Source: Epithemia pelagica
Lineage: Eukaryota; Protista; Bacillariophyta
Assembly: GCA_946965045.2 (NCBI GenBank)
Contig: OX337231.1
Coordinates: 3,962,360-4,026,359 of the forward strand
Length of the DNA stretch: 64,000 nucleotides
Reading direction: 5' to 3'
Shown piece after piece: positions 10,870-45,837 of the stretch; position 1 is the stretch's first letter; the number at the start of each line of letters is the position of its first letter. Position numbers and translations under genes: made by a program. The notes below the pieces were generated by a model. That model saw nothing but the letters and a program-made list of their open reading frames with translations. It ran no database searches and was not told the origin of the DNA.

Positions 10870-11445
10870 CACCTGACACAAGAACAGCCATGGTGGGTGG
10901 GTACTCGCCTGATCGTAGCGGTTGGCCACGTTCTGCTCAAACTCGTACCGTTTGTTGGCCTCTTCTCGTCCGCGCACGAAGCGATAAATGAGAGAAACAG
11001 ACAGACATAATGGCAAAACGACCCACAGTGGTCCGTAGTAGACAATGAATTTCAGCATATCCGATTGCTCCGTTCCCGAGAACCAGCACCACAGTTCAGT
11101 CGGATTGAACTGATCATGCGCCAGTTCTTCGCGCCAACTGCGATTTATGGCCGAGTAAGAATAGACGGCCGCACTTAAATTGTACATTGGAACGGCCGAG
11201 GCAAATGTCTGAAACAAAAAGGCTTGTGCTCGACAGGTTTGCATGCTGCCACTGGGCTGGAAGGTATTGGGATTGTGCACATCGCGAGGAATTGCCCAAC
11301 TTCCCACAACGTACATGGAGCTTGCGCCGATATCATAAATCGACATTCCCAGCAATATGTACAACAAGGTGGTTCGTCGACGTCCATTTTTTCTCCAAAT
11401 GTTGACAATAATCGAGAGAGGGATCCCAAAATCGACAGGGAGCCT
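10870..11445 (-). pseudogene. Fragmentary paralog of the GPCR at 29884-31992
   Basis: Encodes GIPLSIIVNIWRK...QAFLFQTFASAVPMYNLS...QFNPTELWCWFSG. An internal deletion removes part of TM4 and it is truncated at both ends; the 5' side is joined to the repeat element at about 11450. Confidence 0.85.
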
Positions 11446-23200: not shown

Positions 23201-25868
23201 CTGGTGGTGGCATTGTTGTTTGTCCGTGTGAACGGGTTGCTGGTGGGGGCTGTTGTCTTTCTGGGAAAAGTTCCTTTTGGCATTTTTGGATTCGGGGAGG
23301 GGTGAGGGTAGCCGGTGGCGTGTTGGTCGTCAATCGTTTGACGGCGGCTCTGTAGTTACCGAGATCGGCCAGTTGTTGCGCCGAGCTGGTTTTCCATTGT
23401 GGGAGTTGGTCTGGTGGTGATGTTTGCTGTTGTTGGCGTCGTTGTTGCCTGTTTTTCTTCTTGTTGTTGTGGTTGGTCAGTTTCGGAAGCGGTGTTGGAT
23501 TCCATATGGTTTGGTACAGTTCTTCGATTCTTCCTGCTTTCAGGAGGGACAGTCGGGCGCGGAAGGCGTTGGTGTAAGTTCGGTGCACTGTGTTTTTGAT
23601 CGGTGCTAAGAGCAGGGGCTCTAGCAGAATCAGCAGCTTCCAGAAAGGGCTGGCGTCGGTGTCATGTTGTTGTGGTCGTTCGTCTCGGATGACGGCCTGG
23701 GTGAGAGGTGGTGTTGCTGCAAGGAGCCATGAGATCATGTTGTTGTAGGTGGAGTAGAATTCTGCTCTCAAAGGCGGCTTCAGTTTGTGCCATAAGCTGC
23801 GTCGAAAAGGCGGTGGTGTAAGTTGTAGTTGGTGCAGGTAAGCTAGACTTTTCTTCCAGTTGGTTTCTGTCTCTGGTTGCGCATGTCGGTAGGTGTGTAG
23901 GACTAATTGAGTGTTCATTTGGGACCTACTATGCTTTTTTGTTACATGTTGTCTTAGATGGCCTTCCGTCGTGAATATGGTGTCGTTCGTGAACGACTTT
24001 GTGTTTTCCAAAAACTTTCTCATTTCGTCTAGGCGAGAGGGGTTGTTGTGTGCCACATACTTAAAGATAAGTTCAATCTCCTGCATTGTGGTGGACGAAA
24101 ACTCGTGTTCGTCGTTTTCGAGGTTGTCATCGCTGCCGATCAGGGCCCGGGAGTGATCATCGGAGTCGTCCGTGTCCATCCTGTCTGCGGTCGATGGTTC
24201 GTCGTCTTCTTGTTCGGTGAGAGGTGCAAATTGGTTGCGTTTGGCTGCGGGTTTGGAGTCTTCTTCCTCTGGGTGTGGTGCAAACGAGTTTGTTTGTGCG
24301 GCCACCGTCGTCCAGTCGGTTCCGTCCTCGTATGGGTCACTTTCTTCGTCTTCTGTGGGTTGCATGGCCGCGGCGCTTCGTTTGTTGGCCGGTGGGCTGG
24401 TGTTTGTCGGTGTACTCTGGTTGTTGGTGTTGTTGATGTTGCTGTCTCCGGACGTCTCATCGAGGTTGTTGTGTTTGCGACGGAGCAGACGGTTGGTGAA
24501 GGCTAGCAGCCTATTGGTGTGGCTTGAGGAAGTTGGATTGGTTGGGTTTTGGCCTGTGGTGGTCTGTCTTGGTGGTGTTGCCGCTACTGCCGCCAGAGTG
24601 GGGAGAAGAATGTTTTCGGGAAACTCTGGGTGCTGCTGGATGGTGTTGGTGGTTAACATGTGGGTGTCCGGTGTCTTTCGCAAATAGAGGGTGTAGAATT
24701 GCGGATCCGGGTCTTCGTTATCAAATTCTGGAAAAAGGGCCACGAATTCACGGATGTTTCGCAGGCGGTTCCAATCTCCGTCGGTTGCTTCTTGGTTGAT
24801 GGGTTTAAGCTTGATTTTGACGCAAGCTCCGAAGAACTGGTCAATGTCCTTGATTGCCTCCAAGGTTGTTGTTCGATTGCTCTGAGAGGTTGGCATCGGG
24901 ATGATTTGGATGTTGTTCTTGCACCAAGTCAGTTCGGTGTTGCGGTTGGCGGATTGGTAGGCGTTGTAACTCCGAAGTAGTGCCTCAAAGTTGCTTTTGG
25001 ACGAGGCTGTGAGGTAAATTGCCGGAACTTGTCCACGTTGTTTATTTTTCAGCTCGCCGCTGAAAGTTCCAGCACGGCAGCCGATGTGGTTGTAATAGTC
25101 CACGTGGTTCAACTTCCGAGGGAGGTGAGGGGTGAGGATGTTTTGGATGTCGGAGGACAGGTCCAAAGCTGCTCGACGGTGTTTGATTGTTTGGGCCGGC
25201 ACCCCTACGACTATGCCGTAGGTGTCGCTCGTGCGGTTGTTGCATGCTGGTTGGTAGACGTTGATCTGGTCGTACCGTGGGTATATCGTTGGGTTGGATT
25301 GGCGGGTGCCTGGGCGAAGGATTGTTTGGTACCCGTGCTCGTCGTAGGAAAAGTCGTCGTTGTGGTGTTTATGCCACATTTGCAAGACGAAGCGAAGACC
25401 TTGCTCGAAGAAAACACCGGTTCGAATGCGTCGTTCGCTGGAGCTGGGGAGAGGGTGACATGGAAGGTGGATGTGTGTCCACTTCCCTTGTTGGATCGGT
25501 TTTGGTTGTCTGCGCCACGGAGGGGGCGACTGGGGGACTGTTTCGTTTCGAGGAAGTCCACGGAGTGGACCTGTAGCCACATCGGCTCTTCCCTCTTGCT
25601 GTGGTGGAAGAAAACGTCGTTGAGATGCGTTTTCAGAGCTTGTTCGGTGAGTCGCGGGAGAGTGGACTCGATCTCGTGGTTGTGGTGGTGGTTCACTGCC
25701 ACGTGTAGGTGGAACAGGAAGGACGGTTCGGGAGACTGGGGACGTTTCGCCACTTTCGGTTGCCTGTAAGGGTTCGTCGTCGGCGTGCCTTTCTCGTTGT
25801 CGTTGCGTTTGGTGGTCGAGTCGTCGTCGCTCGTCAGGATTTTGTTATCGGTGGGTTGCGTTTCCTTG
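20258..25868 (-). mobile_element. Non-LTR retrotransposon, CRE/SLACS-like clade (RT + C-terminal RLE), 5'-truncated, with poly(A) and 10-bp TSD
   Basis: T13 tract at 20258-20270 (poly-A on the minus strand). GTTGTTGTTG direct repeats at 20248-20257 and 25869-25878. The flanks rejoin to match the empty paralogous site near 7700-7730 (inverted). Confidence 0.9.
20304..25580 (-). CDS. CRE-type retrotransposon polyprotein (RT, CCHC knuckle, restriction-like endonuclease)
   Basis: RT motifs PGTAAGP, LRPIGIGTAIRR, GQYGIQTPGG, LDLTNMFNNVSR, GFPQGCPLSP, IMDD, GIILNKNKT and GVRFLGQPIG. C-terminal CRC...DPMGDHLFSC, NAIRD, RPADV and AAIDITI. The annotated start is GTG; the true N-terminus is uncertain. 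Confidence 0.93.
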   Translation of the reverse strand: MATGPLRGLPRNETVPQSPPPWRRQPKPIQQGKWTHIHLPCHPLPSSSERRIRTGVFFEQGLRFVLQMWHKHHNDDFSYDEHGYQTILRPGTRQSNPTIYPRYDQINVYQPACNNRTSDTYGIVVGVPAQTIKHRRAALDLSSDIQNILTPHLPRKLNHVDYYNHIGCRAGTFSGELKNKQRGQVPAIYLTASSKSNFEALLRSYNAYQSANRNTELTWCKNNIQIIPMPTSQSNRTTTLEAIKDIDQFFGACVKIKLKPINQEATDGDWNRLRNIREFVALFPEFDNEDPDPQFYTLYLRKTPDTHMLTTNTIQQHPEFPENILLPTLAAVAATPPRQTTTGQNPTNPTSSSHTNRLLAFTNRLLRRKHNNLDETSGDSNINNTNNQSTPTNTSPPANKRSAAAMQPTEDEESDPYEDGTDWTTVAAQTNSFAPHPEEEDSKPAAKRNQFAPLTEQEDDEPSTADRMDTDDSDDHSRALIGSDDNLENDEHEFSSTTMQEIELIFKYVAHNNPSRLDEMRKFLENTKSFTNDTIFTTEGHLRQHVTKKHSRSQMNTQLVLHTYRHAQPETETNWKKSLAYLHQLQLTPPPFRRSLWHKLKPPLRAEFYSTYNNMISWLLAATPPLTQAVIRDERPQQHDTDASPFWKLLILLEPLLLAPIKNTVHRTYTNAFRARLSLLKAGRIEELYQTIWNPTPLPKLTNHNNKKKNRQQRRQQQQTSPPDQLPQWKTSSAQQLADLGNYRAAVKRLTTNTPPATLTPPRIQKCQKELFPERQQPPPATRSHGQTTMPPPAAQYLKLQDNMFETALRQMKPGTAAGPFSTSTDILVSMALHRTTRSPDATRPYFNSIKSMIQLVVTAQVPPTIQTILASNYFLALHKDINNLERLRPIGIGTAIRRVAAKAALVQLTDDIRPLLLQGGQYGIQTPGGVDFVAQSTAMAVNEYIERQTNSENTNNADNNNNTPSRALVMLDLTNMFNNVSRTEARKILLEDEATTQLVPLFDLLTNGPCNQWYFDENKNARYLTQEGFPQGCPLSPLFSCLVLLALTNKLNKEQAKRAQQRKVSHDSYDDTMGGIGHTASIMDDTSVCLPHCDLLWFLQRFEELGKPLGIILNKNKTTILTSTTGISPSNNLKPDQQRNLQQALEFLSPDNPEKAEITHGVRFLGQPIGSQSFAQQYINQKLDNMYNKMDCLTQLNDLQTQHSLFKYTMISSIMHLLPSDILLANPNQDPRTTLWTSPTTQRTEKLVARFLAKLTSLPEHQITETSTLIATMPQRLGGLGYQQAATAAYPHFLTQTARAIHLASSTENPIPAVHQRHFTSWKDSTNEHMTKFRKALSLFANEQAEESLFVPSRYEPTTHNRLLKHTVQEHTLPRLIVETDPNQRLFLPALLSPLTSMALSLPLTASKFRYTNQIFRTAIKRKLRLPLFVNDPTQNWPQKCRCSKTKSIDPMGDHLFSCTAASKTPLSNAIRDTLFDVLKHIAPAAEAVDTPHDVHIEPPGLAPQHHRNIRPADVGMLLSQPHKNEPFNYAAIDITIPPPPQPQPLLDPSDHTTLASMASRTHQEAARAKFCRDPDTAKHLFDNGIYLIPFTVDHLGGLGSFADRLLFPSDYHPHLFTTTQPPPWHNPYFGKDQKRSKPQPSAFRLFEEFTAAPSNLLTAANAKTKKFSYPEAHIYSIGHFAKASLGHAIVSALATHANNNIGAIRKHQSKQKLITTQLQNLASPCFAPVTPIYSPAPMAEFVPNMDTAPLLCELTA

Positions 25869-29883: not shown

Positions 29884-31992
29884 TTACCGTATCACCCGAC
29901 AACGGTCATTTTCCTCCCCTTGATTCGATTGTTCTTGCAATTCAAATGTTTGTCCGACTGTGGGTACAACAACAAGTGCCTCTGGAGACGCATGTAGGTC
30001 ATTTGAAATCGGATCGTCCTCCGGAGTGTCTGGCAAAGTTTCACCATTCTCGATTACCGCCGGTGAAGACGAATCTTCTTTCGTTTCGGGGTTTACGACT
30101 GCTGCAGATTCAATTCTTTGTGGTGGTACTTGTTCGTTGGATGATTTCAATGGGACCGCAACGTCAATGGATGGTGTGGTGTAAATTTCTCTACCAATCA
30201 AGCGTTGGTCCATATTGGTCGATGCTTCCTTTTCGTCGTCCATGTCATCCTCCTCATCGTCATCGGAGCCGTAGACATCCTCATTTGCCAAGTCCAATGC
30301 TGCTGCCGCGGCTGCAGCATCCGCCATAAGAAAAGGAGGAACAAAAGAAGCTCGTCGGTAGTCTTCTGCATGCTCCTCAATCCGCTGATGGCTCTCTTGT
30401 CGACGGCGGTCACGTTCTTGCTGATGCTCCTGTTCCAGTTGATCGCGTCTGTCATCCATATCCATCATGAGCTCATCATCATCGTCATCGTCAGGGTCGT
30501 CACAACTCGATGCCTCCATGGAGACTTCCTCCACCCTGTGGAGAGTGCGCAACTCTTCATCTCGTTCCTTCTTTTCCGATTCGGTACCATTCTCCTCTGC
30601 TTCTTTCACCAGCCCCGAACCACTGGTGGGCACGTCCACGTCTTGCTGGAAGACCACAGAGGCCGTTTGTTTTCGGGATGACGCAATACCAAACTCCTGA
30701 CTGACATTGGACGCCGACACTAAGGACTGTTTCAACAGAATACCCCCTCCTCGGAAACTACTATTCTTTGGTATCCCCGAAGCTCCATTGCTGCCCGACG
30801 ATCGAGACCAAAAGGGATTGTTTCCAGCCGTGGTCGTGGATCGACGCACCATGGACAGGGTCCGTTTCCGTCGTCGGACAAAGTTTTGAATCTCCATTTT
30901 GTAATACACCAAAGCATTTAAAAATCCTTGCAGTGGGAGGAATAGGGTCATGAGAAAGAGGGTGGCAAACCGGATATTCTCCTTGTGTAGTTGTTGCGAC
31001 CGTACAATGGTTGGAAACAAAAAAATGAGGACAAAGACGGCCGAAAACAACAAGCCTTGCAAAAAGACTGGCCGGCTGAGTCGTCCTCCTCCTCCTCGAT
31101 TCGTCGACGAGAAGAAGCGAAATGATAACGACCGTCTCGATCTCCCAGACTGTTGACTTGTACTGAAATGACCACTTCCTCCTCCTCCTGTGTGGCTTTG
31201 TCCATCTCGGCCTCCACCGCCATCCTCATGGTTAGTTGTGTGGCTCTCTGTTGGGTTTTGGTGATGGTGGTCAGGGGGTGAAAAGGATTCGGATTGCGGT
31301 TGTTGTTGTTGAAGGCTAAAGGTACTCGCCTGATCGTAGCGGTTGGCCACGTTCTGCTCAAACTCGTACCGTTTGTTGGCCTCCTCTCGTCGGCGCACGT
31401 AGCGATAAATAAGAGAAAACAGACAGACAATAATGGCAAAAACGACCCAGAGTGGTCCGTAGTAGACAATGAATTTGAGCATATCCGATTGCTCCGTTCC
31501 CGAGAACCAACACCACAGTTCATTCGGATTGAACTGATCATGCGCCAGTCCATAAATCGCAGTGGTGGTTCCAAACGTGGCTGGCAAGAGATGAAAGCAC
31601 CAGGCGTATTGCTTCATTCGTTCTTCGCGCCAACTGTGATTTACGGCCAAGTAAGAATAGACGGCCACACTTAAATTGTACATTGGAATGGCCGAGGCAA
31701 ATGTCTGAAACAAAAAGGCTTGTGCTCGACAGGTTTGCATGCTGCCACTGGGCTGGAAGGTATTGGGATTGTCCACATCGCCAGGAATCGCCCAACTCCC
31801 CACAACGTACATGGAGCTTGCACCAATATCATAAATCGACATTCCCAGCAAAATGTACAACAAGGTGGTTCGTCGAAGTCCATCCTTTCTCCAAATGTTG
31901 ACAATAATCGACAGGGATCCCAAAATCGACAGGGAGCCAGTGCATTTTGCGGTCAGTTCTGCCGCCCTCAGCTGCGCCGCCGAATGGCCCAT
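29884..31992 (-). CDS. 7-TM G-protein-coupled receptor, cAMP-receptor (CAR)/Git3-like (702 aa)
   Basis: Seven hydrophobic segments: GSLSILGSLSII; LLYILLGMSIYD; CRAQAFLFQ...YNLSVAVYSY; CFHLLP; ELWCWF; YYGPLWVVF; QGLLFSAVF...; LFLPLQGFLNALVY. Long acidic C-terminal tail. Confidence 0.88.
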   Translation of the reverse strand: MGHSAAQLRAAELTAKCTGSLSILGSLSIIVNIWRKDGLRRTTLLYILLGMSIYDIGASSMYVVGSWAIPGDVDNPNTFQPSGSMQTCRAQAFLFQTFASAIPMYNLSVAVYSYLAVNHSWREERMKQYAWCFHLLPATFGTTTAIYGLAHDQFNPNELWCWFSGTEQSDMLKFIVYYGPLWVVFAIIVCLFSLIYRYVRRREEANKRYEFEQNVANRYDQASTFSLQQQQPQSESFSPPDHHHQNPTESHTTNHEDGGGGRDGQSHTGGGGSGHFSTSQQSGRSRRSLSFRFFSSTNRGGGGRLSRPVFLQGLLFSAVFVLIFLFPTIVRSQQLHKENIRFATLFLMTLFLPLQGFLNALVYYKMEIQNFVRRRKRTLSMVRRSTTTAGNNPFWSRSSGSNGASGIPKNSSFRGGGILLKQSLVSASNVSQEFGIASSRKQTASVVFQQDVDVPTSGSGLVKEAEENGTESEKKERDEELRTLHRVEEVSMEASSCDDPDDDDDDELMMDMDDRRDQLEQEHQQERDRRRQESHQRIEEHAEDYRRASFVPPFLMADAAAAAAALDLANEDVYGSDDDEEDDMDDEKEASTNMDQRLIGREIYTTPSIDVAVPLKSSNEQVPPQRIESAAVVNPETKEDSSSPAVIENGETLPDTPEDDPISNDLHASPEALVVVPTVGQTFELQEQSNQGEENDRCRVIR

Positions 31993-32688
31993 TCATTCAA
32001 CTCTTTCCTTCTTTTTCTTCTTCTTGTTTACAAATGCAGTCTCTTGTTGGTGTCCCTTGTCAACTCTCTCCAAGTCTCCTCTCTCAAACACCGAGATGAA
32101 TCTTCTATTCGCTTGGTCACTGCATGTTATATTATTATGTTATATCGCGGGTTATATCGCTCAAAACCAAAAAAAGGGTCCAATGTCCAATACAAAATTC
32201 AAAATTCAGAGAACTTTGGGGGCTTGCCAAAATTGCCCAACAGAATACAGACGGAGCTGCCGGAAGCAGCGACATGAAAAAGTACAGCAGTATGAGATGT
32301 TAGTGGATACGCACAATGTCCAGATGACAGATGATATGAACGAAAGGGACAATCGATGTCGAAGGACGACACGTTTCTGTCGTGATGTGGTGGATCATTC
32401 GCCATTATTTCCCCTCCAAATAGGTGAGACGGCCAGACCAAATTTGGTCGCGTGTCCTGGACACGTGCTAGGCAGAGCTTGCTCTCAAATAGGGTGGCTT
32501 TGCCGGCTCTCCAACTGCCACCCCGGTCCTCATCCGGATGCTTGAAGGAAAAAAGATTTTTTCTCTGCAGAAAACACTCATCAGACTCCTTTGGTGCTCC
32601 TGTGGTGGTCCTCCATAGTCAACACACTGACTATCAAGAGCAACAACACACGCAGCAACAAAAAAGCCTCCTTCTGGACAACAGATCT

Positions 32689-33885
32689 TTGACTGTCCAT
32701 AACTTTCTAAGTGTAAGTCGGAATTTGGCTTGCTCTACACCGTTGGAAAGGTCTTCTCATGCTGTTGTTGATTGTATATTCATATTCCATGGGCCATTGC
32801 TTCGTTCAGACTCGCTTTTCAATTGAAAATTGACTCCTCTTTTTGGTTGATTGGGCAAGGATCATCCTTGACTGTCCATAACTTTCTAAGTGTAAGTCGG
32901 AATTTGGCTTGCTCTACACCGTTGGAAAGGTCTTCTCATGCTGTTGTTGATTGTATATTCATATTCCATGGGCCATTGCTTCGTTCAGACTCGCTTTTCA
33001 ATTGAAAATTGACTCCTCTTTTTGGCTGATTGGGCAAGGGTCATCCTTGACTGTCCATAACTTTCTAAGTGTAAGTCGGAATTTGGCTTGCTCTACACCG
33101 TTGGAAAGGTCTTCTCATGCTGTTGTTGATTGTATATTCATATTCCATGGGCCATTGCTTTGTTCAGACTCGCTTTTCAATTGAAAATTGACTCCTCTTT
33201 TTGGCTGACTGGGCAAGGATCATCCTTGACTGTCCATAACTTTCTAAGTGTAAGTCGGAATTTGGATTACTCTACACCGTTGGAAAGGTCTTCTCATGCT
33301 GTTGTTGATTGTATATTCGTATTCCATGGGCCATTGCTTTGTTCAGACTCGCACTTCAATTGAAAATTGACTCCTCTTTTTGGCTGACTGGGCAAGGGTC
33401 ATCCTTGACTGTCCATAACTTTCTAAGTGTAAGTCGGAATTTGGCTTGCTCTACACCGTTGGAAAGGTCTTCTCATGCTGTTGTTGATTGTATATTCATA
33501 TTCCATGGGCCATTGCTTCGTTCAGACTTGCTTTTCAATTGAAAATTGACTCCTCTTTTTGGCTGACTGGGCAAGGATCATCCTTGACTGTCCATAACTT
33601 TCTAAGTGTAAGTCGGAATTTGGATTACTCTACACCGTTGGAAAGGTCTTCTCATGCTGTTGTTGATTGTATATTCATATTCCATGGGCCATTGCTTCGT
33701 TCAGACTCGCACTTCAATTGAAAATTGACTCCTCTTTTTGGCTGACTGGGCAAGGGTCATCCTTGACTGTCCATAACTTTCTAAGTGTAAGTCGGAATTT
33801 GGCTTGCTCTACACCGTTGGAAAGGTCTTCTCATGCTGTTGTTGATTGTATATTCATATTCCATGGGCCGTTGCTTCGTTCAGAC
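32689..33885. repeat. 179-bp tandem array, about 6.7 copies
   Basis: Units start ttgactgtccataac at 32689, 32868, 33047, 33226, 33405, 33584 and 33763, with a few substitutions each. Confidence 0.97.
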
Positions 33886-34010
33886 GAGATTTTAAATTGA
33901 ATTTTGCATGGATCTTTGCTGAAAATCTAGCTGTTGACTTTTGTTTGGCAAGCTCCTAGGACCGGCCGCTGGACCCAAACTTTCACAGTAAGGGACCCAC
34001 CTCTCCTAAG

Positions 34011-35198
34011 ATGGGGCGAACCAAACCATTGTCTTCAGAAGAGATTTGTTGCACATTGAAGAAAATCGCCGACAATGAGAGTGGAAGCAGCACCAATGTG
34101 ACAACTCCTTTCCATTCTTTTAGTTCGACAAAAACATCAAGCTCATTACGGACGGTGGTGGCAAAGGGGATTGTCCAGGCTGCAGCCAAGCCAAAAACCA
34201 AACGGCAGAAGCAACGACAGAAGAAAAAAAACAGAAAACAAAGGTCTGAGCTCTTGTCAGTGGAGCCTCTTCCAGCTGAAGATGGTATCCAAGCTTCTAT
34301 TCTGCAAAAGTTTTGTGTGGTCTTCACAATGGACGGTGACATCGCCAAGCCGAATTTTTCTGATCAATCACAAAATTATGACAAGCCTATAATGGTTTCA
34401 TTATGCAATTGGAAGGTCACTGACACTGGCCAAGGGGGTTCAATTTTCCATCCGATAAAAAATGAACTGCCTGTGTTCATTAAACCTCCCTATCAATCAA
34501 GATTGATGCCAGACAAAGTCATCCATGATATTATACAAGTCTTGAAGAGTGTTGAGAAAAAGGCACCGAATCAACGTCGTGGAAAGTCCAAATTCCTTGG
34601 CTTGGATGGGCCGAATTCCAAGTATGTGGCCATCGGGATCCATGCTAACCGAGGGGGGAGAGGACTCATACAGTCGAAGCTAAACATGATGTCAACTGAG
34701 GAGAAGGAGACTCTTGTGAGTTTTATACGACGATTGGAAGAGATCTTTCAACGTTGGGTTGATTGGTCCTACTTGACAGGTTTCAGAAATGCAGCTGTCC
34801 ACCAAGACATCACAATGCTTGACGATGGGCATAGAGCCACAGAGTTTTTCTCGTCCGTTGCATTTGGACGGAATGTCTATCTCCAAGCACATACCGACTG
34901 CGACTTCGGTTATTCCATTGTGGTGGTTCTGCAGGTGGAACCAGAAGAGACTGATTTGGATGAAATTCTATGCTACTTCGTTTTCCCAGTTCATGCACAA
35001 GTGGTAGCCTTGCGTCACGGAGACATTATCATTTTTAACCCAACAATATATCATTGCGTTTCGAAGAAATCAGTGACGGGGGATGTGTTCTGTCTTTCCT
35101 GTTACCTGAAGACAGCAGTGGTCGGAAAAAATGACAATTTACTTCCTCTGACAAGGGTGGAAAGTGAAATTGCCCGTTTGCAAACAAAAGGAACATAG
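34011..35198 (+). CDS. 2OG-Fe(II) dioxygenase, TET/JBP-like (395 aa)
   Basis: FFSSVAFGRNVYLQAHTDCD (HxD)...YFVFP...VVALRHGDIIIFNPTIYHCVS (distal His)...VFCLSCYLK fits a DSBH core in the TET/JBP layout. Basic NLS-like N-terminus. Confidence 0.72.
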   Translation: MGRTKPLSSEEICCTLKKIADNESGSSTNVTTPFHSFSSTKTSSSLRTVVAKGIVQAAAKPKTKRQKQRQKKKNRKQRSELLSVEPLPAEDGIQASILQKFCVVFTMDGDIAKPNFSDQSQNYDKPIMVSLCNWKVTDTGQGGSIFHPIKNELPVFIKPPYQSRLMPDKVIHDIIQVLKSVEKKAPNQRRGKSKFLGLDGPNSKYVAIGIHANRGGRGLIQSKLNMMSTEEKETLVSFIRRLEEIFQRWVDWSYLTGFRNAAVHQDITMLDDGHRATEFFSSVAFGRNVYLQAHTDCDFGYSIVVVLQVEPEETDLDEILCYFVFPVHAQVVALRHGDIIIFNPTIYHCVSKKSVTGDVFCLSCYLKTAVVGKNDNLLPLTRVESEIARLQTKGT

Positions 35199-35294
35199 AA
35201 ACATAACATACTAGCGTTTGTACCAGACAGAACATTCAAATTGCATCTATCTTGAACATAGAGACATAGCCCACTAAAATGCACATGACAATTA

Positions 35295-35704
35295 CTATTC
35301 AAATTGCGTCAATCCTAATTGAGCTCCACGGAAACGACGACTGTGCCTTGACTGTTCACTGTTGGAAGACACCCATTCTTGTCCCTGATTATGATTTGCC
35401 CTTTCGGCCATATCCTTCCGAATGGTACGCGTGAGCTCTTTCACATGTGAAAGGGTTGATCTCAAATCAATGGCATTGTTGTTGTAATTTGCAGATCGGA
35501 AAAGCTTCTGCAACTCTGATATTTCCTCTTTCATTAAGCTGACAAACAAGGTTGGACTCAATCCCTGTCCATAAGCATCATCACAACGCTGATTCAAATC
35601 CATGTCATGGTCCCCAGGCACTTCAAAAATGTTGTCTGAACATGATTCTAGAATAGGCTCATCATTGGTAGTTGATTCATCTCCTGAGGAATCTTCATGT
35701 GACG
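35295..35704 (-). pseudogene. Orphan 3' end of a minus-strand gene (possibly the transposase C-terminus)
   Basis: The frame is open from the 35704 junction to a stop at 35295 (…LMKEEISELQKLF…WVSSNSEQSRHSRRFRG…). The upstream part of ORF 35295..35813 is antisense Ulp1-RING sequence. Confidence 0.45.
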
Positions 35705-36444
35705 TTGAGCGGATGGAAGGCATCGAAGCTATGGCCATGTCCCTGCCCAAGGTACCGGAAAAGGTGCTTATTGAAATGTTGCAGACACCAGTGGCAAGCT
35801 GCTGGATCTGCAAAAAAAAATTTGGAAAGGAGGGGATTTTGGCAATGACTTGTTGCCATCGTCGCTGTCACGAGGCTTGCTTGACGAGCGCCATGTCCTC
35901 CGGGCGTCCACGCCGCGGTACACGGGGTGCTCCACCCTGTCCCTGCTGCAAGAAGCAATGTGAAAAGATTGTCACCCTAGGTGAGAATTATAATGTTGAA
36001 GGAATTTGGTCTCATGGGTCCACAAAACCGTCTCTGAAAACGGTAACGTTCGCTCCGAGTTCGGCCGAAAAGGAGGCTACATTGGGTTTGCAACAGTTGG
36101 CAACTCAGATGGTCGAGAACCCATCAGACACCAACAACAAGGAAGTGGAAATTCCGGTGGATAACGATGTTGTGCCAAGCCAGGTTGGTGATAACACTTT
36201 GTTGGTCGATACTGATGAGGACGAAGAAGACGTAGAAACGAAAGCCGCCGATCGTCATGTCACTTTGACGACCAATCGTGAGCTCGAGCGACGCAATCAA
36301 CAACGTGCCGTGGTGGATAATCGGCGACCAAGTCTCATCGACCATGGCCCACCCACTCTTCCCCAAGGAGTTTTGGTATTGCCCAGGAAAACACCCACCG
36401 GAAGGTTGCCTGACGTTGGTCTCGTAGAAACATTCGAAGTATGA
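35705..36444 (+). pseudogene. Duplicated RING-containing 3' fragment of the Ulp1-RING gene
   Basis: Near-identical to 42577-43316 (one substitution seen). Contains CWICKKKF...TCCHRRCHEAC...CPCC. Confidence 0.9.
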
Positions 36445-37741
36445 TAATATACTTGCCAAAACCAGTACGGATAGAAGCGGTGAGGAGAGGTCTTGACTCC
36501 TTGTTGGTACCCTCTGTGACGTCAACTTTGAGGACATGGGGCAACAGGCGGAACATGCGTTTCTCTTTATTTGATATCCACGCACATGCTATGAAAAAGT
36601 TTTGGTCTTCTTGTAGGGAAAGTGCTTCCATGTCTGCTGAGTACTCATGAACGACTTCTTTGCAAAAATCAGATAAATCAGTAACGTTCCTCGTACCATC
36701 CTCCATTTGATTTTCACTGAATACAAGACCGGCCTCTTTCTCTACTTGTGCGTGCAATAATTTTTGTGGTCGTGCCCCCCATATACAGAAACTTATTCCA
36801 GGAGTTGATCGAAGCCAATCAACAACAGCTCCTGCTCTGATTTCGATCCCATCATAATGGTACTTGGAGTTTGATTCAAGAGAATGAAAAGCGTATCGTA
36901 TCTGTTGTGGGGTAAGTGTCATATTGTGATTCGCATGGAAGAAGTTTCTTCCAGCAGCAGGTCGTGTATTAGCTTTACCAAGCTCTGCTGCTCTTTTCTT
37001 CTGCTCAATTGTTAACATACGCAATTTAATGGGGATGTCTTGCGGTGAACGTTTCATGTGGTTACAATGTTTCGTGGTCCCTGCATTTCTTTTCACATAA
37101 AATCCATGCAGGTCCACAAAGACATTGAATCGGAAAGAACACGTATCTTTGTTGCAAAGTGGTCGATTGGTGACACACTTTCGTGGACCTCGTTTGCCAT
37201 CTAATCCCCTACTGTTACCTCTATGGTCGTTGTGGAGAGAGGTATTCCGATGTTGCATATCTTCAGTCGAGGTACAACGTTTGCGTTTTTGATGATAACG
37301 ACGGTATCGATCACACAGAAAGGTGCGCGAGGCAAAGGGAGCTTGACTGTCTTTTGGGAATGTTTTGCGTTTGGACAATGACGCATTGTGAGTATTTCCA
37401 TTGGACGTCAGGGAAAATCCGGCATCCACAGATGATTGATACAGATCAGTTCTCAACAAAGTAAAAGATTCCGATTCATCGAGAGATGCAGCTGGGTTTT
37501 GACATGGAGGATACTTTGTTCGACAGAAGTATGCATATTCCCCTGGGATGTGATCTGCTTCGGGAAGCCATCCAATGAATGCACATATATCAACATCGAC
37601 GACACTCGTGTTGAATGCGCAATCATCTCCAACATGCATTGGAAAGGTCATTGAAGAAAACCATTCAAGTTCCAATGAATTGAAATACAGATCAAGCTGG
37701 CCTTGAAGTTGGTCATGCAGGGAAGGGTCGAAATTAGACAT
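36335..37741 (-). pseudogene. Mutator-like (MULE) transposase, N-terminal 468 aa, truncated inside the DDE domain (copy 1)
   Basis: FAR1/WRKY-like Zn region (FLCDRYRRY...CSFRFNVFVDLHGFYV...HCNH). MULE core start VLKVDVTEGTNKESRPLLTASIRTGFGKYIIILRMFLRDQRQATFRWVFSWAIPKLLG. Ends before the second catalytic Asp. Confidence 0.82.
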
Positions 37742-38946
37742 GGTGGAGCGAAGTAAAGGTGGAAAAGAAGGAAGCTTGACAGATTTCCAGCAATTTGCTT
37801 CGATAGAGAGAGCGGATGAGCATTGGTCCTAAACAAGAAACCAAATCCGAGGAAGCTGGACGCAAGCCGAGCTTGATGTAACGGTGTTGGAAATTAGAGA
37901 TACTTAGAGCTACCTGGAGCAGTGGCGGGCGACATTGAAACAAGGATAGGGTTGGGGATTTGTCTGGCCGTCTCACCTATTTGGAGGGGATTTAATGGCG
38001 AATTAGTTTCTATAAGTAACTTATGGCGCCAGAGGAACCGGGAGGACACACCACACACGACACACCCACATTTACCGCGGAATCGCGCTAACTCTATTAT
38101 TCATGCATAATACCTATAAGCTTGCGTCATCAATCTCAACTCTCACCAATCACCACCAACAATATTGGCACACATCTGGCACCCACTCATTCTTCTACAT
38201 CTTCATTGATTCGGATATTTTGACATGATGGCCGCCATTCGTAGAGAGATTCCAATGACGGAGAAGAATCCGATGTTCCATCCGAACTACTGGACTATGG
38301 ACTATTGGCCAAGCAAAACGAGCAGTTGGTGAATCCTGCTACCACCACCTAAAAGGTTTCTTTTGTGTCCGGCACAGTCAGTGACACTGAGCCCTCCAAT
38401 GATCCTGCTACGGCGACAGGTCCAGCCTCCCAATGGAGAACGCATCCAACGGCTCCTCCTTCTCCTTGCCCTTTTTCGCCAATGTCACATTGGATTGGAC
38501 ACGACGCAAGCTTTGGCTAAAGCACAACGATCCAGTGTCCGAATTCCACCGCTTCAGCAGCTAGAATATCATTCAGAGCGACAAGCACCACCCCCACCAC
38601 CACAAGGAGCCAGTGCATCTTCCACCTCCAACCGAGATCCTCCGATCCTTCCAGCCTTTCAACCAGATTCCCCGTCCCTTTATTCAACAGCAACAGCTGA
38701 TTCGGGTTTCAACGCACCTCCACCAGCACGGCGGTCTCCTTCCGCATTGTCGAATCGAGAGGTGCTCCAGTTTCGCACGAGGAGCAGGGCCCACAAGGAC
38801 TTGAACCATCCAAATTGGGAAATGCCGCTACATTACGATGCAGCAATACTACTTGGCCACGGCCACCCTTGTGTCCTGTGGGCTGTCTTCTCCAGCAACC
38901 AATTCTTCTGCCACTACCTTTACAGCAACAAGTGTCAAGGCCCTCG

Positions 38947-41409
38947 TCATGTCAGGTTTGACGACCTTAAAAGAAGAAGGAGGAACTCGCAAAAGTTGAC
39001 CTGGTTGCAAAACACCATGAATGGGCGGACACAAGTGCCTTCGTTGTCGAACGCCGTCCTGAAGGCAGTGATTAAATTGTGCACGGCAGCCCATACGTTG
39101 GTCGTGTAAGTTATGGGATGTATATGCACAGGCTTTAAGAATGATGTCCCGGACACATGTTGGCGGTCGGTGGGGGAAAGGCTACAAACCTCGGTGTAGA
39201 ACTTGACATCTTCCAGAGATATTCCGTCTTGTAGCATGACAACAAATTGAGCAGCCTTGACGAGATGAACAAAGCGTTCATAAATCCCTGTCAACATTTG
39301 AGTACAGGTGGTGCTGATGAAATGACGCCTGGTGAAACCAGCTTCGTCAAAGAGGACAACATCGTAGTCCCGAGCGTAACCCACCTTCCAAAGAGAATTT
39401 ACGGAGATGACCAACATTTTCGGAGCAGCGTCGATTTCGTCTTTTGTCAAGTTGGTGTAGCATTCCACGCCAAGACGTGTAGCCAGTTGTTTTGCCAGCA
39501 TTACACGGAAGGCCACCAAACAGACAGACTTGTTCTCACGGACACATCGGTTCACAAGCCGCGCGAGCTGGTATGTTTTCCCCGATCCCATGGGTGCATG
39601 TACAACGCAAAACTTACGTTGCATCTTCTCTCGCCATCGAATGTTTGGCATGAATGCCTTTGCATCATCGCTCTCGTCGATTTCGGCGTCTTCAAAAGGA
39701 AAGAGGGGTTCCTTTGCCGGTGTCGTGACGCAAGCGAAGGTCCTGGCACATCCAAAGCAGTGGAAGCCGCCATTAAAAACCCGTGCACTGGGCGTGCGTT
39801 CTTCGATGCCGTTATGCATATGATGAAAACAATCACCGCTACGGAAAAGCCTAAAAGGCTTGTATGTTCCATCTTCATCACGGAAAACCTCATCCGGAGA
39901 AACGGGCTCATGGGGATCGAAGTCTTCAATATTGCGCATAGCGTTTGCGCGTTCGGCATGGGTCAATAGCCGTCGTTGTGTTTTTGTTTTTCTTTTCTCC
40001 TCATAGCGTTCAACATTGCTGTCACCTCGTACGACGCGGTCTACCATATGACTAATGTCACCAGACGTAGAAGGGACTCTGCTATCAGCGTACCACCGAC
40101 GAGGCTTTGGGTACGATGGGGAGGGTTTCCAACCAGCAATACCATAGGACTCAGTGGCAACGGTTTCGGGAACAGGAGCTCCAATAAGATGTTCCCTCCA
40201 ATACACTAAACCATGGTCGTCCCCTCCGAAGCAATCCGAAAAGCGCCGACTCGCCACCAAACATGGTCGACCTGGAGACCATGGAGCTAACGCGGCAATA
40301 TCACTAGCCACCGCCTTGGACGCCCCCGGCGCACGCAAGAGATGGTTGGATGTGTAGACAGCCTCGTCGAATGGCGTGTCGTTGTGGCCCTTGAAAACCC
40401 ATGTTCCATCATTCTCTACCTCAAGGCACTCGAAGAGCATTAGGGCCTTCAAACGGAACCTCCCTTCCGCAGTGGCCAAGCTTGCTTGCGAGGAATGATT
40501 GAAAAGCCATTTCGTGTTGTCGACTGAAAATTTGCGAGCAATTTCGTAAACCAACAGAGGTAATGTAATGACGGATGAATCACAAAAAATGGACTTGGCC
40601 ACAACATGGAATGAAAACTTTTTGCTTCGGCAACCTGTAAGAACCTTCAAATCCAGTGTATCGTCAGGGACGTCGGGTAACACGCGTTTGAGATATCGCT
40701 TTATATGTTCCAACAACACAGCGATCCCGGCCTGACAGGTCTCCTCCGTGAACCTTTCGCGTATAACGCTACGATACGCTCCACCGATTGCTTCCAACGT
40801 CGATTCTGTCGCTTCAATACCCAATGCTCTAACGTGGTCACGCAAGATATCTTTTTCCGGGATATGACCAAATTCACCAACCTTTACTTCTATATCGAAG
40901 AAAACACGGCAGGGAATGTCCGATCGAACCACCTCGTCCAACCAGACGCTTTTATCCCAGTTGTGGGCAAACTGGAAGAAACGTCGCAATGGAGCAACTA
41001 GATACTCCTTCTGGAACGTCATCCGTGAATTCACATCGTCGCCCTTAGGCTTATCGCGGGCAAATATCATATCCTCGGAGCTGCATATCTCCAAGGCCTG
41101 CTTCAAACGTGAGTAGATGCGAATGTTGCGCCGTTGCAGTTCAAGGCGTCCTTGAAAATATTCGTTGGTCAGTGTCTCCAATTGAGACGTATATTGATCA
41201 TGAGCGTTCCTTTCGTTTTGATCATGAGCGTTCCTTTCGTTTTGCTCTTGTTGTTGTTCTCTTTCGTCCCTTTGTTGCTCTTGTTGTTGTTCTCTAACTC
41301 TATCCACGTCCCATTGTTGGCGATATTCTTCTAAATCACTATCATAGCCACTTTCATAGTCACTGTCGTCTTCGGGTCCATACTCCTCGAATATATGCTC
41401 AAAGTCCAT
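38947..41409 (-). CDS. PrimPol/AEP-type primase + Zn finger + herpes UL9-like SF2 helicase fusion, C-terminally truncated (820 aa)
   Basis: AEP motifs DEVVRSDIPCRVFFDIE (DxE), SKKFSFHVV (SxH) and FDEAVYTSNHLLRAPGASK. Zn finger CFHHMH...FHCFGC. Helicase HAPMGSGKT, VAFRVMLAKQL, LVISVNSL, DVVLFDEA and PFMVFC. Fused to other DNA at about 38965. Confidence 0.88.
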   Translation of the reverse strand: MDFEHIFEEYGPEDDSDYESGYDSDLEEYRQQWDVDRVREQQQEQQRDEREQQQEQNERNAHDQNERNAHDQYTSQLETLTNEYFQGRLELQRRNIRIYSRLKQALEICSSEDMIFARDKPKGDDVNSRMTFQKEYLVAPLRRFFQFAHNWDKSVWLDEVVRSDIPCRVFFDIEVKVGEFGHIPEKDILRDHVRALGIEATESTLEAIGGAYRSVIRERFTEETCQAGIAVLLEHIKRYLKRVLPDVPDDTLDLKVLTGCRSKKFSFHVVAKSIFCDSSVITLPLLVYEIARKFSVDNTKWLFNHSSQASLATAEGRFRLKALMLFECLEVENDGTWVFKGHNDTPFDEAVYTSNHLLRAPGASKAVASDIAALAPWSPGRPCLVASRRFSDCFGGDDHGLVYWREHLIGAPVPETVATESYGIAGWKPSPSYPKPRRWYADSRVPSTSGDISHMVDRVVRGDSNVERYEEKRKTKTQRRLLTHAERANAMRNIEDFDPHEPVSPDEVFRDEDGTYKPFRLFRSGDCFHHMHNGIEERTPSARVFNGGFHCFGCARTFACVTTPAKEPLFPFEDAEIDESDDAKAFMPNIRWREKMQRKFCVVHAPMGSGKTYQLARLVNRCVRENKSVCLVAFRVMLAKQLATRLGVECYTNLTKDEIDAAPKMLVISVNSLWKVGYARDYDVVLFDEAGFTRRHFISTTCTQMLTGIYERFVHLVKAAQFVVMLQDGISLEDVKFYTEVCSLSPTDRQHVSGTSFLKPVHIHPITYTTNVWAAVHNLITAFRTAFDNEGTCVRPFMVFCNQVNFCEFLLLLLRSSNLT

Positions 41410-41687
41410 GGTGATTGACTAAAGAAAAACTGTTGAATTGTGGATTATGAGAACAAGAGAAGAGAAATCGGCATGAAGAAATGGCGGGAAATTTTGCTCT
41501 AAGTCAATAGGATAGAGACCCTCTATGCTAGCGACCACCTATCATAGTGACTCTCTACCATGCCACCCCCTATCATAGGACCCCTCTATCATACCTCCCC
41601 CGGATGGTAGCCACCCCCTCTGGAAGAAATCTTTCTATCACAACAAAACGTCAACCAACCGCCACCACAACCAAAGCAACCCTTGCC

Positions 41688-43316
41688 ATGCCTACCTTAA
41701 AGTATCTCGACGTGATACAGCACTACTTTGCCGCATATGTGTTGATTAAGCCGGACAAAGAGTTAGTTACGCACGTTGAGTTTCCTGTGGAACGTTTGGC
41801 CATGCTGATGCAAAAAGGCTACGAGTGGCAAGCCGTTGATATCGTGGCGTTCCTAAATCTTCAAAAGGCCTATCTTGACGATCTACAAAATGAGCGAAAC
41901 TCCTCTTCTCTCCTTCTTCTCCCTCATATATTCATGGACGATGGCATGAAGGACAAAAGGGGCAAGAGCCTTGAATTACAGAGGATTTTGGATGCTTCAG
42001 GCTTCGACAAGACAAGGCACAAGTACCTTACGTTTTTTGTTTACAAGAAGGATGCGGTAATTGATAGGCCAACGGGAAAACACCCTCCTGAGCGACCATC
42101 GGCTGGGGGACATTGGTTTACTGTTTGGGTGTGCTTGGCATCCGACAACATACGTATCCGTATGACGGAGTCGAGGACATGTGTGAAAGCTTCTTATTTC
42201 GAGAACTTGGCAGCTACAACGTTGGTAACCCTTGGTTGTAATTCCTCCATCACGGTGAAAAAGTGCTCCGTGCATCAATTTGAAGACATGTCTTCGAAAC
42301 AAAAGGACCCGTCTGAGGTTCCATTCCTACACGAACGCGTCAAGGTCAATAACGGAGACACCAATGCCTGTGGTCCCGTGGCGTGTGTGGCCCTACACCA
42401 CAACGTGAATCGGTCCTTGAGCATTGCGGAAGACGCCAAAAGAGAGACTCGGTTTCGATTGAAAGCCTGTCAAGTTCTCGCCCTTCATTTGTCTCACGCC
42501 TATTTTGGGAAGAAGATTAAAATCGTTAATGACGACGAAGCCGCAAGCATCAATCCCGACCAGCTATCGAATATGATTGAGCGGATGGAAGGCATCGAAG
42601 CTATGGCCATGTCCCTGCCCAAGGTACCGGAAAAGGTGCTTATTGAAATGTTGCAGACACCAGTGGCAAGCTGCTGGATCTGCAAAAAAAAATTTGGAAA
42701 GGAGGGGATTTTGGCAATGACTTGTTGCCATCGTCGCTGTCACGAGGCTTGCTTGACGAGCGCCATGTCCTCCGGGCGTCCACGCCGCGGTACACGGGGT
42801 GCTCCACCCTGTCCCTGCTGCAAGAAGCAATGTGAAAAGATTGTCACCCTAGGTGAGAATTATAATGTTGAAGGAATTTGGTCTCATGGGTCCACAAAAC
42901 CGTCTCTGAAAACGGTAACGTTCGCTCCGAGTTCGGCCGAAAAGGAGGCTACATTGGGTTTGCAACAGTTGGCAACTCAGATGGTCGAGAACCCATCAGA
43001 CACCAACAACAAGGAAGTGGAAATTCCGGTGGATAACGATGTTGTGCCAAGCCAGGTTGGTGATAACACTTTGTTGGTCGATACTGATGAGGACGAAGAA
43101 GACGTAGAAACGAAAGCCGCCGATCGTCATTTCACTTTGACGACCAATCGTGAGCTCGAGCGACGCAATCAACAACGTGCCGTGGTGGATAATCGGCGAC
43201 CAAGTCTCATCGACCATGGCCCACCCACTCTTCCCCAAGGAGTTTTGGTATTGCCCAGGAAAACACCCACCGGAAGGTTGCCTGACGTTGGTCTCGTAGA
43301 AACATTCGAAGTATGA
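41688..43316 (+). CDS. Ulp1/C48-like cysteine protease fused to a RING finger; C-terminus truncated/fused to antisense transposase DNA
   Basis: GGHWFTVWV (His), RMTES (Glu at the usual Asp position), NNGDTNACGPVAC (Cys), then RING C-x2-C...CC-H-x2-C-H-x2-C...C-x2-C. First ATG at 41688. Confidence 0.75.
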   Translation: MPTLKYLDVIQHYFAAYVLIKPDKELVTHVEFPVERLAMLMQKGYEWQAVDIVAFLNLQKAYLDDLQNERNSSSLLLLPHIFMDDGMKDKRGKSLELQRILDASGFDKTRHKYLTFFVYKKDAVIDRPTGKHPPERPSAGGHWFTVWVCLASDNIRIRMTESRTCVKASYFENLAATTLVTLGCNSSITVKKCSVHQFEDMSSKQKDPSEVPFLHERVKVNNGDTNACGPVACVALHHNVNRSLSIAEDAKRETRFRLKACQVLALHLSHAYFGKKIKIVNDDEAASINPDQLSNMIERMEGIEAMAMSLPKVPEKVLIEMLQTPVASCWICKKKFGKEGILAMTCCHRRCHEACLTSAMSSGRPRRGTRGAPPCPCCKKQCEKIVTLGENYNVEGIWSHGSTKPSLKTVTFAPSSAEKEATLGLQQLATQMVENPSDTNNKEVEIPVDNDVVPSQVGDNTLLVDTDEDEEDVETKAADRHFTLTTNRELERRNQQRAVVDNRRPSLIDHGPPTLPQGVLVLPRKTPTGRLPDVGLVETFEV

Positions 43317-45837
43317 TAATATACTTGCCAAAACCAGTACGGATAGAAGCGGTGAGGAGAGGTCTTGACTCCTTGTTGGTACCCTCTGTGACGTCAACTT
43401 TGAGGACATGGGGCAACAGGCGGAACATGCGTTTCTCTTTATTTGATATCCACGCACATGCTATGAAAAAGTTTTGGTCTTCTTGTAGGGAAAGTGCTTC
43501 CATGTCTGCTGAGTACTCATGAACGACTTCTTTGCAAAAATCAGATAAATCAGTAACGTTCCTCGTACCATCCTCCATTTGATTTTCACTGAATACAAGA
43601 CCGGCCTCTTTCTCTACTTGTGCGTGCAATAATTTTTGTGGTCGTGCCCCCCATATACAGAAACTTATTCCAGGAGTTGATCGAAGCCAATCAACAACAG
43701 CTCCTGCTCTGATTTCGATCCCATCATAATGGTACTTGGAGTTTGATTCAAGAGAATGAAAAGCGTATCGTATCTGTTGTGGGGTAAGTGTCATATTGTG
43801 ATTCGCATGGAAGAAGTTTCTTCCAGCAGCAGGTCGTGTATTAGCTTTACCAAGCTCTGCTGCTCTTTTCTTCTGCTCAATTGTTAACATACGCAATTTA
43901 ATGGGGATGTCTTGCGGTGAACGTTTCATGTGGTTACAATGTTTCGTGGTCCCTGCATTTCTTTTCACATAAAATCCATGCAGGTCCACAAAGACATTGA
44001 ATCGGAAAGAACACGTATCTTTGTTGCAAAGTGGTCGATTGGTGACACACTTTCGTGGACCTCGTTTGCCATCTAATCCCCTACTGTTACCTCTATGGTC
44101 GTTGTGGAGAGAGGTATTCCGATGTTGCATATCTTCAGTCGAGGTACAACGTTTGCGTTTTTGATGATAACGACGGTATCGATCACACAGAAAGGTGCGC
44201 GAGGCAAAGGGAGCTTGACTGTCTTTTGGGAATGTTTTGCGTTTGGACAATGACGCATTGTGAGTATTTCCATTGGACGTCAGGGAAAATCCGGCATCCA
44301 CAGATGATTGATACAGATCAGTTCTCAACAAAGTAAAAGATTCCGATTCATCGAGAGATGCAGCTGGGTTTTGACATGGAGGATACTTTGTTCGACAGAA
44401 GTATGCATATTCCCCTGGGATGTGATCTGCTTCGGGAAGCCATCCAATGAATGCACATATATCAACATCGACGACACTCGTGTTGAATGCGCAATCATCT
44501 CCAACATGCATTGGAAAGGTCATTGAAGAAAACCATTCAAGTTCCAATGAATTGAAATACAGATCAAGCTGGCCTTGAAGTTGGTCATGCAGGGAAGGGT
44601 CGAAATTAGACATGGTGGAGCGAAGTAAAGGTGGAAAAGAAGGAAGCTTGACAGATTTCCAGCAATTTGCTTCGATAGAGAGAGCGGATGAGCATTGGTC
44701 CTAAACAAGAAACCAAATCCGAGGAAGCTGGACGCAAGCCGAGCTTGATGTAACGGTGTTGGAAATTAGAGATACTTAGAGCTACCTGGAGCAGTGGCGG
44801 GCGACATTGAAACAAGGATAGGGTTGGGGATTTGTCTGGCCGTCTCACCTATTTGGAGGGGATTTAATGGCGAATTAGTTTCTATAAGTAACTTATGGCG
44901 CCAGAGGAACCGGGAGGACACACCACACACCACACACCCACATTTACCGCGGAATCGCGCTAACTCTATTATTCATGCATAATACCTATAAGCTTGCGTC
45001 ATCAATCTCAACTCTCACCAATCACCACCAACAATATTGGCACACATCTGGCACCCACTCATTCTTCTACATCTTCATTGATTCGGATATTTTGACATGA
45101 TGGCCGCCATTCGTAGAGAGATTCCAATGACGGAGAAGAATCCGATGTTCCATCCGAACTACTGGACTATGGACTATTGGCCAAGCAAAACGAGCAGTTG
45201 GTGAATCCTGCTACCACCACCTAAAAGGTTTCTTTTGTGTCCGGCACAGTCAGTGACACTGAGCCCTCCAATGATCCTGCTACGGCGACAGGTCCAGCCT
45301 CCCAATGGAGAACGCATCCAACGGCTCCTCCTTCTCCTTGCCCTTTTTCGCCAATGTCACATTGGATTGGACACGACGCAAGCTTTGGCTAAAGCACAAC
45401 GATCCAGTGTCCGAATTCCACCGCTTCAGCAGCTAGAATATCATTCAGAGCGACAAGCACCACCCCCACCACCACAAGGAGCCAGTGCATCTTCCACCTC
45501 CAACCGAGATCCTCCGATCCTTCCAGCCTTTCAACCAGATTCCCCGTCCCTTTATTCAACAGCAACAGCTGATTCGGGTTTCAACGCACCTCCACCAGCA
45601 CGGCGGTCTCCTTCCGCATTGTCGAATCGAGAGGTGCTCCAGTTTCGCACGAGGAGCAGGGCCCACAAGGACTTGAACCATCCAAATTGGGAAATGCCGC
45701 TACATTACGATGCAGCAATACTACTTGGCCACGGCCACCCTTGTGTCCTGTGGGCTGTCTTCTCCAGCAACCAATTCTTCTGCCACTACCTTTACAGCAA
45801 CAAGTGTCAAGGCCCTCGTCATGTCAGGTTTGACGAC
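42577..45837. repeat. Near-identical 3261-bp duplication of 35705-38965 (offset 6872)
   Basis: Identical ORF translations at a constant offset. Only two substitutions noticed by eye. Breakpoints at ttgagcgg and gacgac. Confidence 0.96.
43207..44613 (-). pseudogene. MULE transposase, truncated (copy 2)
   Basis: Translation identical to 36335..37741. Confidence 0.82.

Follow-up and report, generated by a model that had tools for sequence, protein, structure and literature searches.

What is a primase fused to a helicase of the herpesvirus UL9 type doing in a diatom chromosome? The question is raised by an open reading frame (ORF) in a 64,000-nucleotide stretch of Epithemia pelagica (assembly GCA_946965045.2, contig OX337231.1, positions 3,962,360–4,026,359), hereafter called the window, whose own numbering is used below. 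The ORF has zero internal stops across its 820 aa and encodes an archaeo-eukaryotic primase (AEP), a Zn ribbon and the beginning of a superfamily 2 (SF2) helicase (Table 1). Our preferred answer, held with moderate confidence, is that it belongs to a broken 4.25-kb piece in a disrupted Mutator transposase, and that this piece came from a separate diatom mobile element whose intact protein would start the copying of its DNA. A preliminary description of the ORF had overlooked the setting, namely a fragment broken at both ends and lodged in a Mutator transposase gene.

The reading of the ORF as an AEP joined to a UL9-type helicase, already proposed in that description, was borne out. The three AEP motifs said to be intact were present (FFDIE at aa 170, SFH at 266 and FDEAVY at 347). 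In a family alignment of 29 rows, D172 and E174 occurred in 27 of the 28 rows having a residue there, and H268 and D348 in 28/29. The domain thus combines DxE, SxH and D on an RRM-like palm, as in AEPs of the PrimPol type and of the type found in nucleocytoplasmic large DNA viruses and herpesviruses. The helicase matched PF02399 at aa 594–733 (E 9e-11; 41 bits against a cut-off of 20), with K611, D688 and E689 conserved in all 29 rows. The AEP lies N-terminal to the helicase, the order of the viral R8/pF1055L/mriyavirus SF2_hel group. A structure model of the window protein, built from a 9-row alignment (mean predicted local distance difference test score, pLDDT, 65), was closest among PDB entries to human PrimPol (7jkp, E 5e-7) and the origin-binding protein (OBP) of herpes simplex virus 1 (HSV-1; 9hgi, E 3e-6), two of the comparisons the preliminary description had pointed to. 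OBP was also the best match of the helicase part (Z 16.5, 187 residues aligned, root-mean-square deviation (rmsd) 3.2; next entry Z 13.6). The GC content at third codon positions was 0.51, which is host-like.

Two details of the preliminary description had to be revised. A C-H-C-C zinc finger of the PrimPol type was rejected because C527 was present in 1/29 rows. The family instead conserves an H-x-H/CxxC ribbon, with H or C at 530 in 28/29 rows, a variable H532 (19/29) and CxxC at 551/554; the sole Pfam match of this stretch was the DnaG CHC2 ribbon, a weak one (E 0.12). The UL52-type C-H-C-C finger is what we take to be the pattern of cellular PrimPol, from which the window protein departs both in its CxxC ribbon and in its fused helicase. 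The Walker A string APMGSGKT was found at aa 605 as described, but its use as a marker of UL9 was abandoned since it also occurs in N15-like RepA encoded beside a protelomerase and in plasmid Rep proteins, at loci selected by that pattern.

The helicase is indeed cut after motif IV. The gene is broken at codon 814 (window 38966), exactly at the right edge of a 3.26-kb direct duplication; residues 1–814 are its own and the final six are supplied by the duplicated flank. Helicase motifs V–VI, most of RecA2 and the entire C-terminal, putatively origin-binding domain are absent from the window. Judged by the closest full-length relatives, about 550–620 aa are missing. Splicing was rejected as the cause of the short helicase because DNA for the missing part was not within the window. 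With motifs V–VI and the C-terminal domain lost, the window copy is predicted to be unable to unwind DNA or to bind an origin; a primase-only product is possible.

The surrounding DNA was identified by searching with the neighbouring transposase fragment, which recovered an intact 1,059-aa transposase (P0186) with the MULE and SWIM domains (PF10551 and PF04434) of Mutator-like elements (MULEs). The window copy is 99.8% identical to P0186 and interrupted. Since parts of P0186 map on either side of the foreign DNA, they represent one Mutator element with an interrupted transposase; aa 467–923 (about 457 codons) were not found in the window when P0186 was mapped. From the arrangement of these parts, the element appears to run from a 45-nt inverted repeat (32397) through a 179-bp array, a TET/JBP-like ORF (+) and the transposase (-) to the other inverted repeat. 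MULEs are expected to have long terminal inverted repeats (TIRs) and a 9-bp target site duplication (TSD); the inverted repeat is only 45 nt long here, and a search for a TSD around it found none. Diatom MULEs are tabulated as 'No TSD and not indicated' in PMC6446971. The 960 bp past the right inverted repeat (44876–45837), into which the transposon may continue, are CpG-poor (0.74) and contain disrupted ORFs.

The foreign DNA inside the transposase (38966–43215, 4.25 kb) contains the primase-helicase and, head to head with it, an Ulp1-like/RING ORF. Both ORFs run past the ends of the piece, which marks it as a fragment and not a whole element; 43215 and 38966 were each rejected as the end of an intact element. 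The observed/expected CpG ratio was 1.11 (0.99–1.22) for the primase-helicase and 1.01 (0.83–1.20) for the Ulp1-like ORF. The Mutator parts gave 0.64 (0.46–0.84) for the TET-like ORF, 0.52 for the 179-bp array and 0.80 (0.63–1.02) and 0.59 for the transposase halves, and three host ORFs gave 0.88–1.08. The difference between the primase-helicase and the Mutator parts points to different histories of the foreign piece and the Mutator element.

The Ulp1-like ORF was assigned by its similarity (Atlas 0.94) to clusters with PF02902 on 16–17% of their members. It had no Pfam C48 match, its RING was matched at E 0.034, and a homologue search found none at 326–1,040 aa. The intergenic region between the two ORFs contains GCGGGAAA at 41484, which resembles what we take to be the E2F consensus; such a site was not seen upstream of the family genes at the three metagenomic loci described below (L001–L003).

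Full-length relatives, which the preliminary description had suggested might exist, were found. They span 1,357–2,479 aa, and the closest (1,357–1,433 aa) are about 40–45% identical to the window protein. In a profile search of 1.84 billion representatives, 187 proteins passed E<=1e-30, and relaxing the threshold to E<=1e-10 raised the number to 988. A single-copy cellular gene, the result that would have spoken against the earlier reading, was not what emerged. Among 33 proteins scanned, a C-terminal Ulp1 C48 domain occurred in P0027, P0028, P0030 and the cluster member P0164, and Skeletonema entries of EukProt fell within the clusters of P0027 and P0030. In P0028, aa 1898–2453 comprise UCH deubiquitinase and Ulp1 protease domains, both fused to the primase-helicase. 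Most of the contigs listed for the family measure 4–16 kb, among them those behind the P0027/P0030 clusters (9–16 kb) and the P0005 and P0003 clusters (about 8 kb). The exceptions are the contig of the window itself, that of P0012/P0013 (293 kb) and those of the P0006 cluster (41–79 kb, the range also given for P0212).

A metagenome scan covering 40 of 64 parts gave 29 loci, three of which (L001–L003) hold full family members, and all three are damaged. L001 equals P0005 over 1,007 aa and then breaks off. In L002, inverted arms (at least 2,147 bp each, 99.95% identical; 564–2710 and 7786–9932) enclose a spacer of 5,075 bp with a frameshifted gene. These arms carry tRNA-Ser(GCT) and host-like DNA, and the left one enters part of a host-like membrane-protein gene. 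The gene of L003 carries a single in-frame stop and is joined by a small ORF convergent with it; arms of at least 123 bp enclose the two, so inverted arms flank the gene at two of the three loci. AAATCG/CGATTT words occurred 16 times in positions 1–520 of L003 (shuffle maximum 2) and four times in positions 1–120 of L001 (shuffle maximum 1); they were not enriched in the window piece or in L002. These iterated, partly palindromic words upstream of the L001 and L003 genes, which are distant members of the family, are candidate origins. A tRNA-like fragment, uncalled by Rfam, lies near 270–300 of L003. Small ORFs with coiled-coil and SH3/KOW-like parts adjoin the family gene in L001 (123–494) and L003 (6139–6540); common ancestry of the two is not claimed because BLAST gave no alignment between them. 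Those of the other 26 loci that were annotated proved distant; they comprise phages of the N15 kind, plasmids, a single herpesvirus, and proteins that are giant-virus-like or unplaced. One locus, L010, encodes a 1,282-aa AEP and UL9-like protein on a 6.6-kb contig ending in a perfect 114-bp inverted repeat (6182–6295, 6452–6565).

Virus collections yielded little. Four family scans of IMG/VR (A2, P0027, P0001 and P0212) gave 137, 16, 1 and 3 pattern matches and 0 confirmed loci, and a scan of it with the transposase confirmed nothing. With the sister group A4 (24/64 parts), two weak matches were obtained, a phage helicase grouping with RepA and an SF1 helicase, and a scan with L005 gave no new locus. 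In GTDB, a scan with A2 found no family member and one with A4 gave two weak matches. No capsid-like ORF was detected with Pfam, which misses divergent capsids, in L001–L003 or in the 24 window ORFs scanned.

The ancestry of the family was addressed with its helicase. The helicase set comprised 56 rows, 8 sister-group proteins and L031 having been lost at extraction; a quick tree was built from 42 rows and a careful tree from 29 of these plus two outgroups. The family and its sister group formed one helicase clade (support 99/98), separate from eight phage or plasmid RepA rows (100/98) and from four herpes or giant-virus-like rows (94/85), and its link to phage and plasmid RepA was weak (84/73). 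A joint clade of the family and the viral rows was not rejected by the approximately unbiased (AU) test (p 0.196), with four viral-like rows in the set and R8 and pF1055L absent from it. By tblastn, P0003 matched VP882 RepA and CyRepA1 proteins at 21–26% identity over the helicase only, and phmmer gave 0 matches of P0003 to PDB sequences. The best BFVD matches were origin-binding proteins of giant viruses, over the whole length. A model of P0206, a natural 852-aa entry consisting of the helicase and C-terminal domain (pLDDT 82), aligned with giant-virus origin-binding proteins over 700–830 columns (template modelling score about 0.5). Among 48,161 PDB chains, OBP alone aligned far into the C-terminal domain of P0206 (9hgi 66–809 with model 1–685, 483 residues), at an rmsd of 14 and with a Z of 21.8 tied with DEAD-box helicases, which align with the motor alone. 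The viral ancestry inferred in the preliminary description is, given the family's own clade, the AU result and this C-terminal alignment with its tie on Z, plausible but not shown, and nothing was confirmed in the four IMG/VR scans. The phylogeny did unite the family in one clade; in the best tree that clade stood apart from the viral rows. The family protein is part of a broader set of initiators found in viruses and plasmids.

Judging from homology, the intact protein of about 1,400 aa would act in the manner of UL9 or of a plasmid RepA. The origin of the element itself would be bound by the C-terminal domain and opened by the SF2 motor, and a host polymerase would extend primers made by the Zn ribbon and AEP. 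The donor of the window piece would be such a mobile element. Break repair likely put the piece into the transposon, replacing about 1.37 kb of transposase; the 3.26-kb duplication that cut the helicase likely arose afterwards through template switching. Several observations weigh against this explanation. No intact family element with defined ends was seen, and no integrase or transposase was found in L001–L003, where similarity to MULEs was no better than E 0.27. The 90% cluster of P0001 has one member, and therefore no second close copy of it is on record. The Ulp1-like ORF of the window had no detectable likeness to the C48 domains fused in the relatives, so the Ulp1 link common to both may be convergent, and its CpG interval overlaps that of the transposase. 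The junctions were read from assembly sequence alone, the IMG/VR and GTDB scans, which match exact peptide patterns, can overlook relatives, and the OBP alignment of P0206 has the high rmsd and tied Z given above.

The piece could instead be a remnant of an unrecognised diatom virus of the giant-virus, mriyavirus or polinton-like kind, an origin we regard as unlikely. It would agree with the AEP and UL9 fusions of mimivirus R8, pF1055L of African swine fever virus (ASFV), ostreid herpesvirus 1 (OsHV-1) and mriyaviruses (10.1101/2024.02.29.582850), with the giant-virus proteins found in BFVD, with the family cluster on 41–79-kb contigs and with the unrejected joint clade. It fits poorly with the IMG/VR scans, the missing capsid-like ORFs, the separation from viral rows in the best tree and the tRNA-Ser and host-like gene piece in the L002 arms. 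A still less probable proposal is that a larger, self-synthesising family of Mutator-type transposons regularly carries the primase-helicase and Ulp1 genes, two of its elements having recombined to give the locus. The window gene does lie within a MULE, the inverted arms of L003 enclose two convergent genes, and MULEs take up gene fragments (PMC6446971); yet the piece interrupts the transposase instead of adjoining it, its CpG content is unlike that of the MULE, L001–L003 lack closer MULE similarity, and the transposase cluster has four members against one for P0001.

Two further explanations concern the window copy itself. That misassembly produced the duplication and the cut, with a longer or intact gene present in the genome, seems very improbable to us. 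In its favour, only two positions distinguish the 3,261-bp copies, but they do differ, the interruption of the transposase at 43215/43216 is independent of the duplication, and damaged copies occur in other assemblies (L001–L003, and P0012/P0013 on one contig). Domestication of the truncated gene by the host as an extra PrimPol-like primase could draw on 814 stop-free codons with intact catalytic residues, a native upstream region and host-like third positions. It is nevertheless hardly credible, because the cut is as young as the 99.94% identical duplication, leaving no time for selection to show, and the gene sits in wrecked transposon DNA.

An origin in a separate mobile element thus remains our preferred explanation, and it invites a broader proposal that we put forward as a tentative, rather doubtful one. 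Diatoms might host an undescribed class of capsid-less, self-priming mobile replicons of roughly 5–16 kb, each centred on a single RepA-like AEP/Zn/UL9 initiator, in some cases accompanied by a SUMO protease, and bounded by inverted, iterated origin-like ends. They would insert without a transposase of their own, and replication firing in the chromosome would leave duplicated flanks, direct in the window (3.26 kb) and inverted in L002 (at least 2.1 kb). The window copy is ruined, and viruses are already known to have the fusion; what matters is the family, whose many members come from marine metagenomes and diatom transcriptomes and which has repeatedly been met in connection with rearranged or mirrored DNA. 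Should its members be small replicons of eukaryotes that use a single initiator of the plasmid style, they would bridge the gap between phage and plasmid RepA on one side and herpesvirus and giant-virus origin-binding proteins on the other; they would also contribute to the rearrangement of diatom genomes and might serve as the basis of episomal vectors for diatoms. Novelty seems to reside in the family and in its setting, which is apparently mobile and non-viral; no description of the family in diatoms or in a transposon was found in the main texts searched, mostly outside subscription journals.

Table 1. Features of the primase-helicase locus and the surrounding Mutator element (window coordinates)
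Feature	Position	Strand	Remarks
45-nt inverted repeat, left arm	32397..32441	+	candidate MULE TIR
179-bp tandem array	32685..33901		about 6.8 copies, 96–98% alike
TET/JBP-like 2OG-Fe(II) dioxygenase ORF (HxD...H)	33960..35198	+	convergent with transposase
MULE transposase C-terminus, about aa 924–1059	35298..35704	-	
Direct duplicate of 42577–45837	35705..38965		3,261 bp, 2 mismatches (99.94%); right edge = helicase break
Duplicate of transposase aa 1–466	36344..37741	-	
AEP primase + Zn ribbon + UL9-type SF2 helicase ORF	38947..41409	-	820 aa
SF2 helicase motifs I–IV (RecA1 + start of RecA2)	38968..39630	-	Pfam, fold comparison
Zn ribbon H530-x-H532...C551-x2-C554, DnaG CHC2-like	39748..39822	-	Pfam E 0.12, weak
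AEP domain, motifs I–III intact, PrimPol-like fold	40315..41127	-	about aa 95–365
Short divergent intergenic region	41410..41687		E2F-like site at 41484
Ulp1/C48-like protease + RING ORF	41532..43316	+	own sequence cut at 43215, then transposase antisense
MULE transposase aa 1–466	43216..44613	-	465/466 identical to P0186; cut before second catalytic Asp
45-nt inverted repeat, right arm	44831..44875	-	second copy at 37959–38003

The Mutator element offers a second lead, on transposon anti-silencing. Its TET/JBP-like ORF resembled (Atlas 0.96) a cluster in which 13% of the members bear PF12851, and had no Pfam match to that family. The HxD and H iron ligands were seen, and the 2-oxoglutarate (2OG)-binding Arg, presumably to be expected in TET/JBP dioxygenases, was not obvious. 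In the CpG-depleted element (32397–38003), which also carries the array, this ORF is possible anti-silencing cargo. Elsewhere in the window, a GPCR-like gene (29884–31992; Dicty_CAR E 1.6e-5) has a 94–95% identical partial paralogue 20 kb away (10900–11444). A reverse-transcriptase ORF of 1,846 aa (20304–25844, -) lies in a strongly GC-skewed stretch, and a C-terminal fragment of a cytochrome P450 (46145–46768, +) lies directly right of the locus.

Among known systems, the AEP and UL9-like SF2 fusions of mimivirus R8, ASFV pF1055L, OsHV-1 and the mriyavirus SF2_hel group (10.1101/2024.02.29.582850) resemble the family in domain order, intact AEP motifs and, for the giant-virus origin-binding proteins, whole-chain fold. 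The family differs in its 10–15% identity to them, its own helicase clade, its DnaG-like Zn ribbon and the fusion of some members to Ulp1 or to UCH and Ulp1. No virus core genes were seen among the scanned window ORFs or in L001–L003, and its setting is a host chromosome and host-like contigs. HSV-1 UL9 (PF02399; domain layout from PMC13483431) is the best helicase fold match, and a full-length relative aligns with it through the C-terminal domain, which the window copy lacks. UL9 has no primase, and its motif II reads DEVM/DEIM where the family has DEAG/DECG. AEPs fused to distantly UL9-like helicases are described on bacterial mobile elements (all3500 family; PMC5862659), and a primase-SF2 fusion in polinton-like viruses of cryptophytes (PMC12220804). 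RepA of the N15 type and CyRepA1 share with the family a related helicase, the same Walker A string and the joining of primase and helicase in one protein for a small replicon. The RepA proteins that were fetched, however, have Toprim/DUF3854 primases and not an AEP, come from bacterial hosts and are similar at the 21–26% level in the helicase only. Human PrimPol (7jkp, 5l2x) is the best structural match of the AEP half; it has another Zn finger, whereas the family has a fused helicase and is probably mobile, not single-copy. The window element is like diatom MULEs and Pack-MULEs (as described in PMC6446971 and 10.1101/2023.01.02.522487) in its MULE and SWIM transposase, inverted ends and foreign fragment. 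It is set apart by its TET/JBP-like second ORF, its 179-bp array and an inverted repeat of only 45 nt, and by a fragment that probably derives from a different mobile gene and splits the transposase in two.

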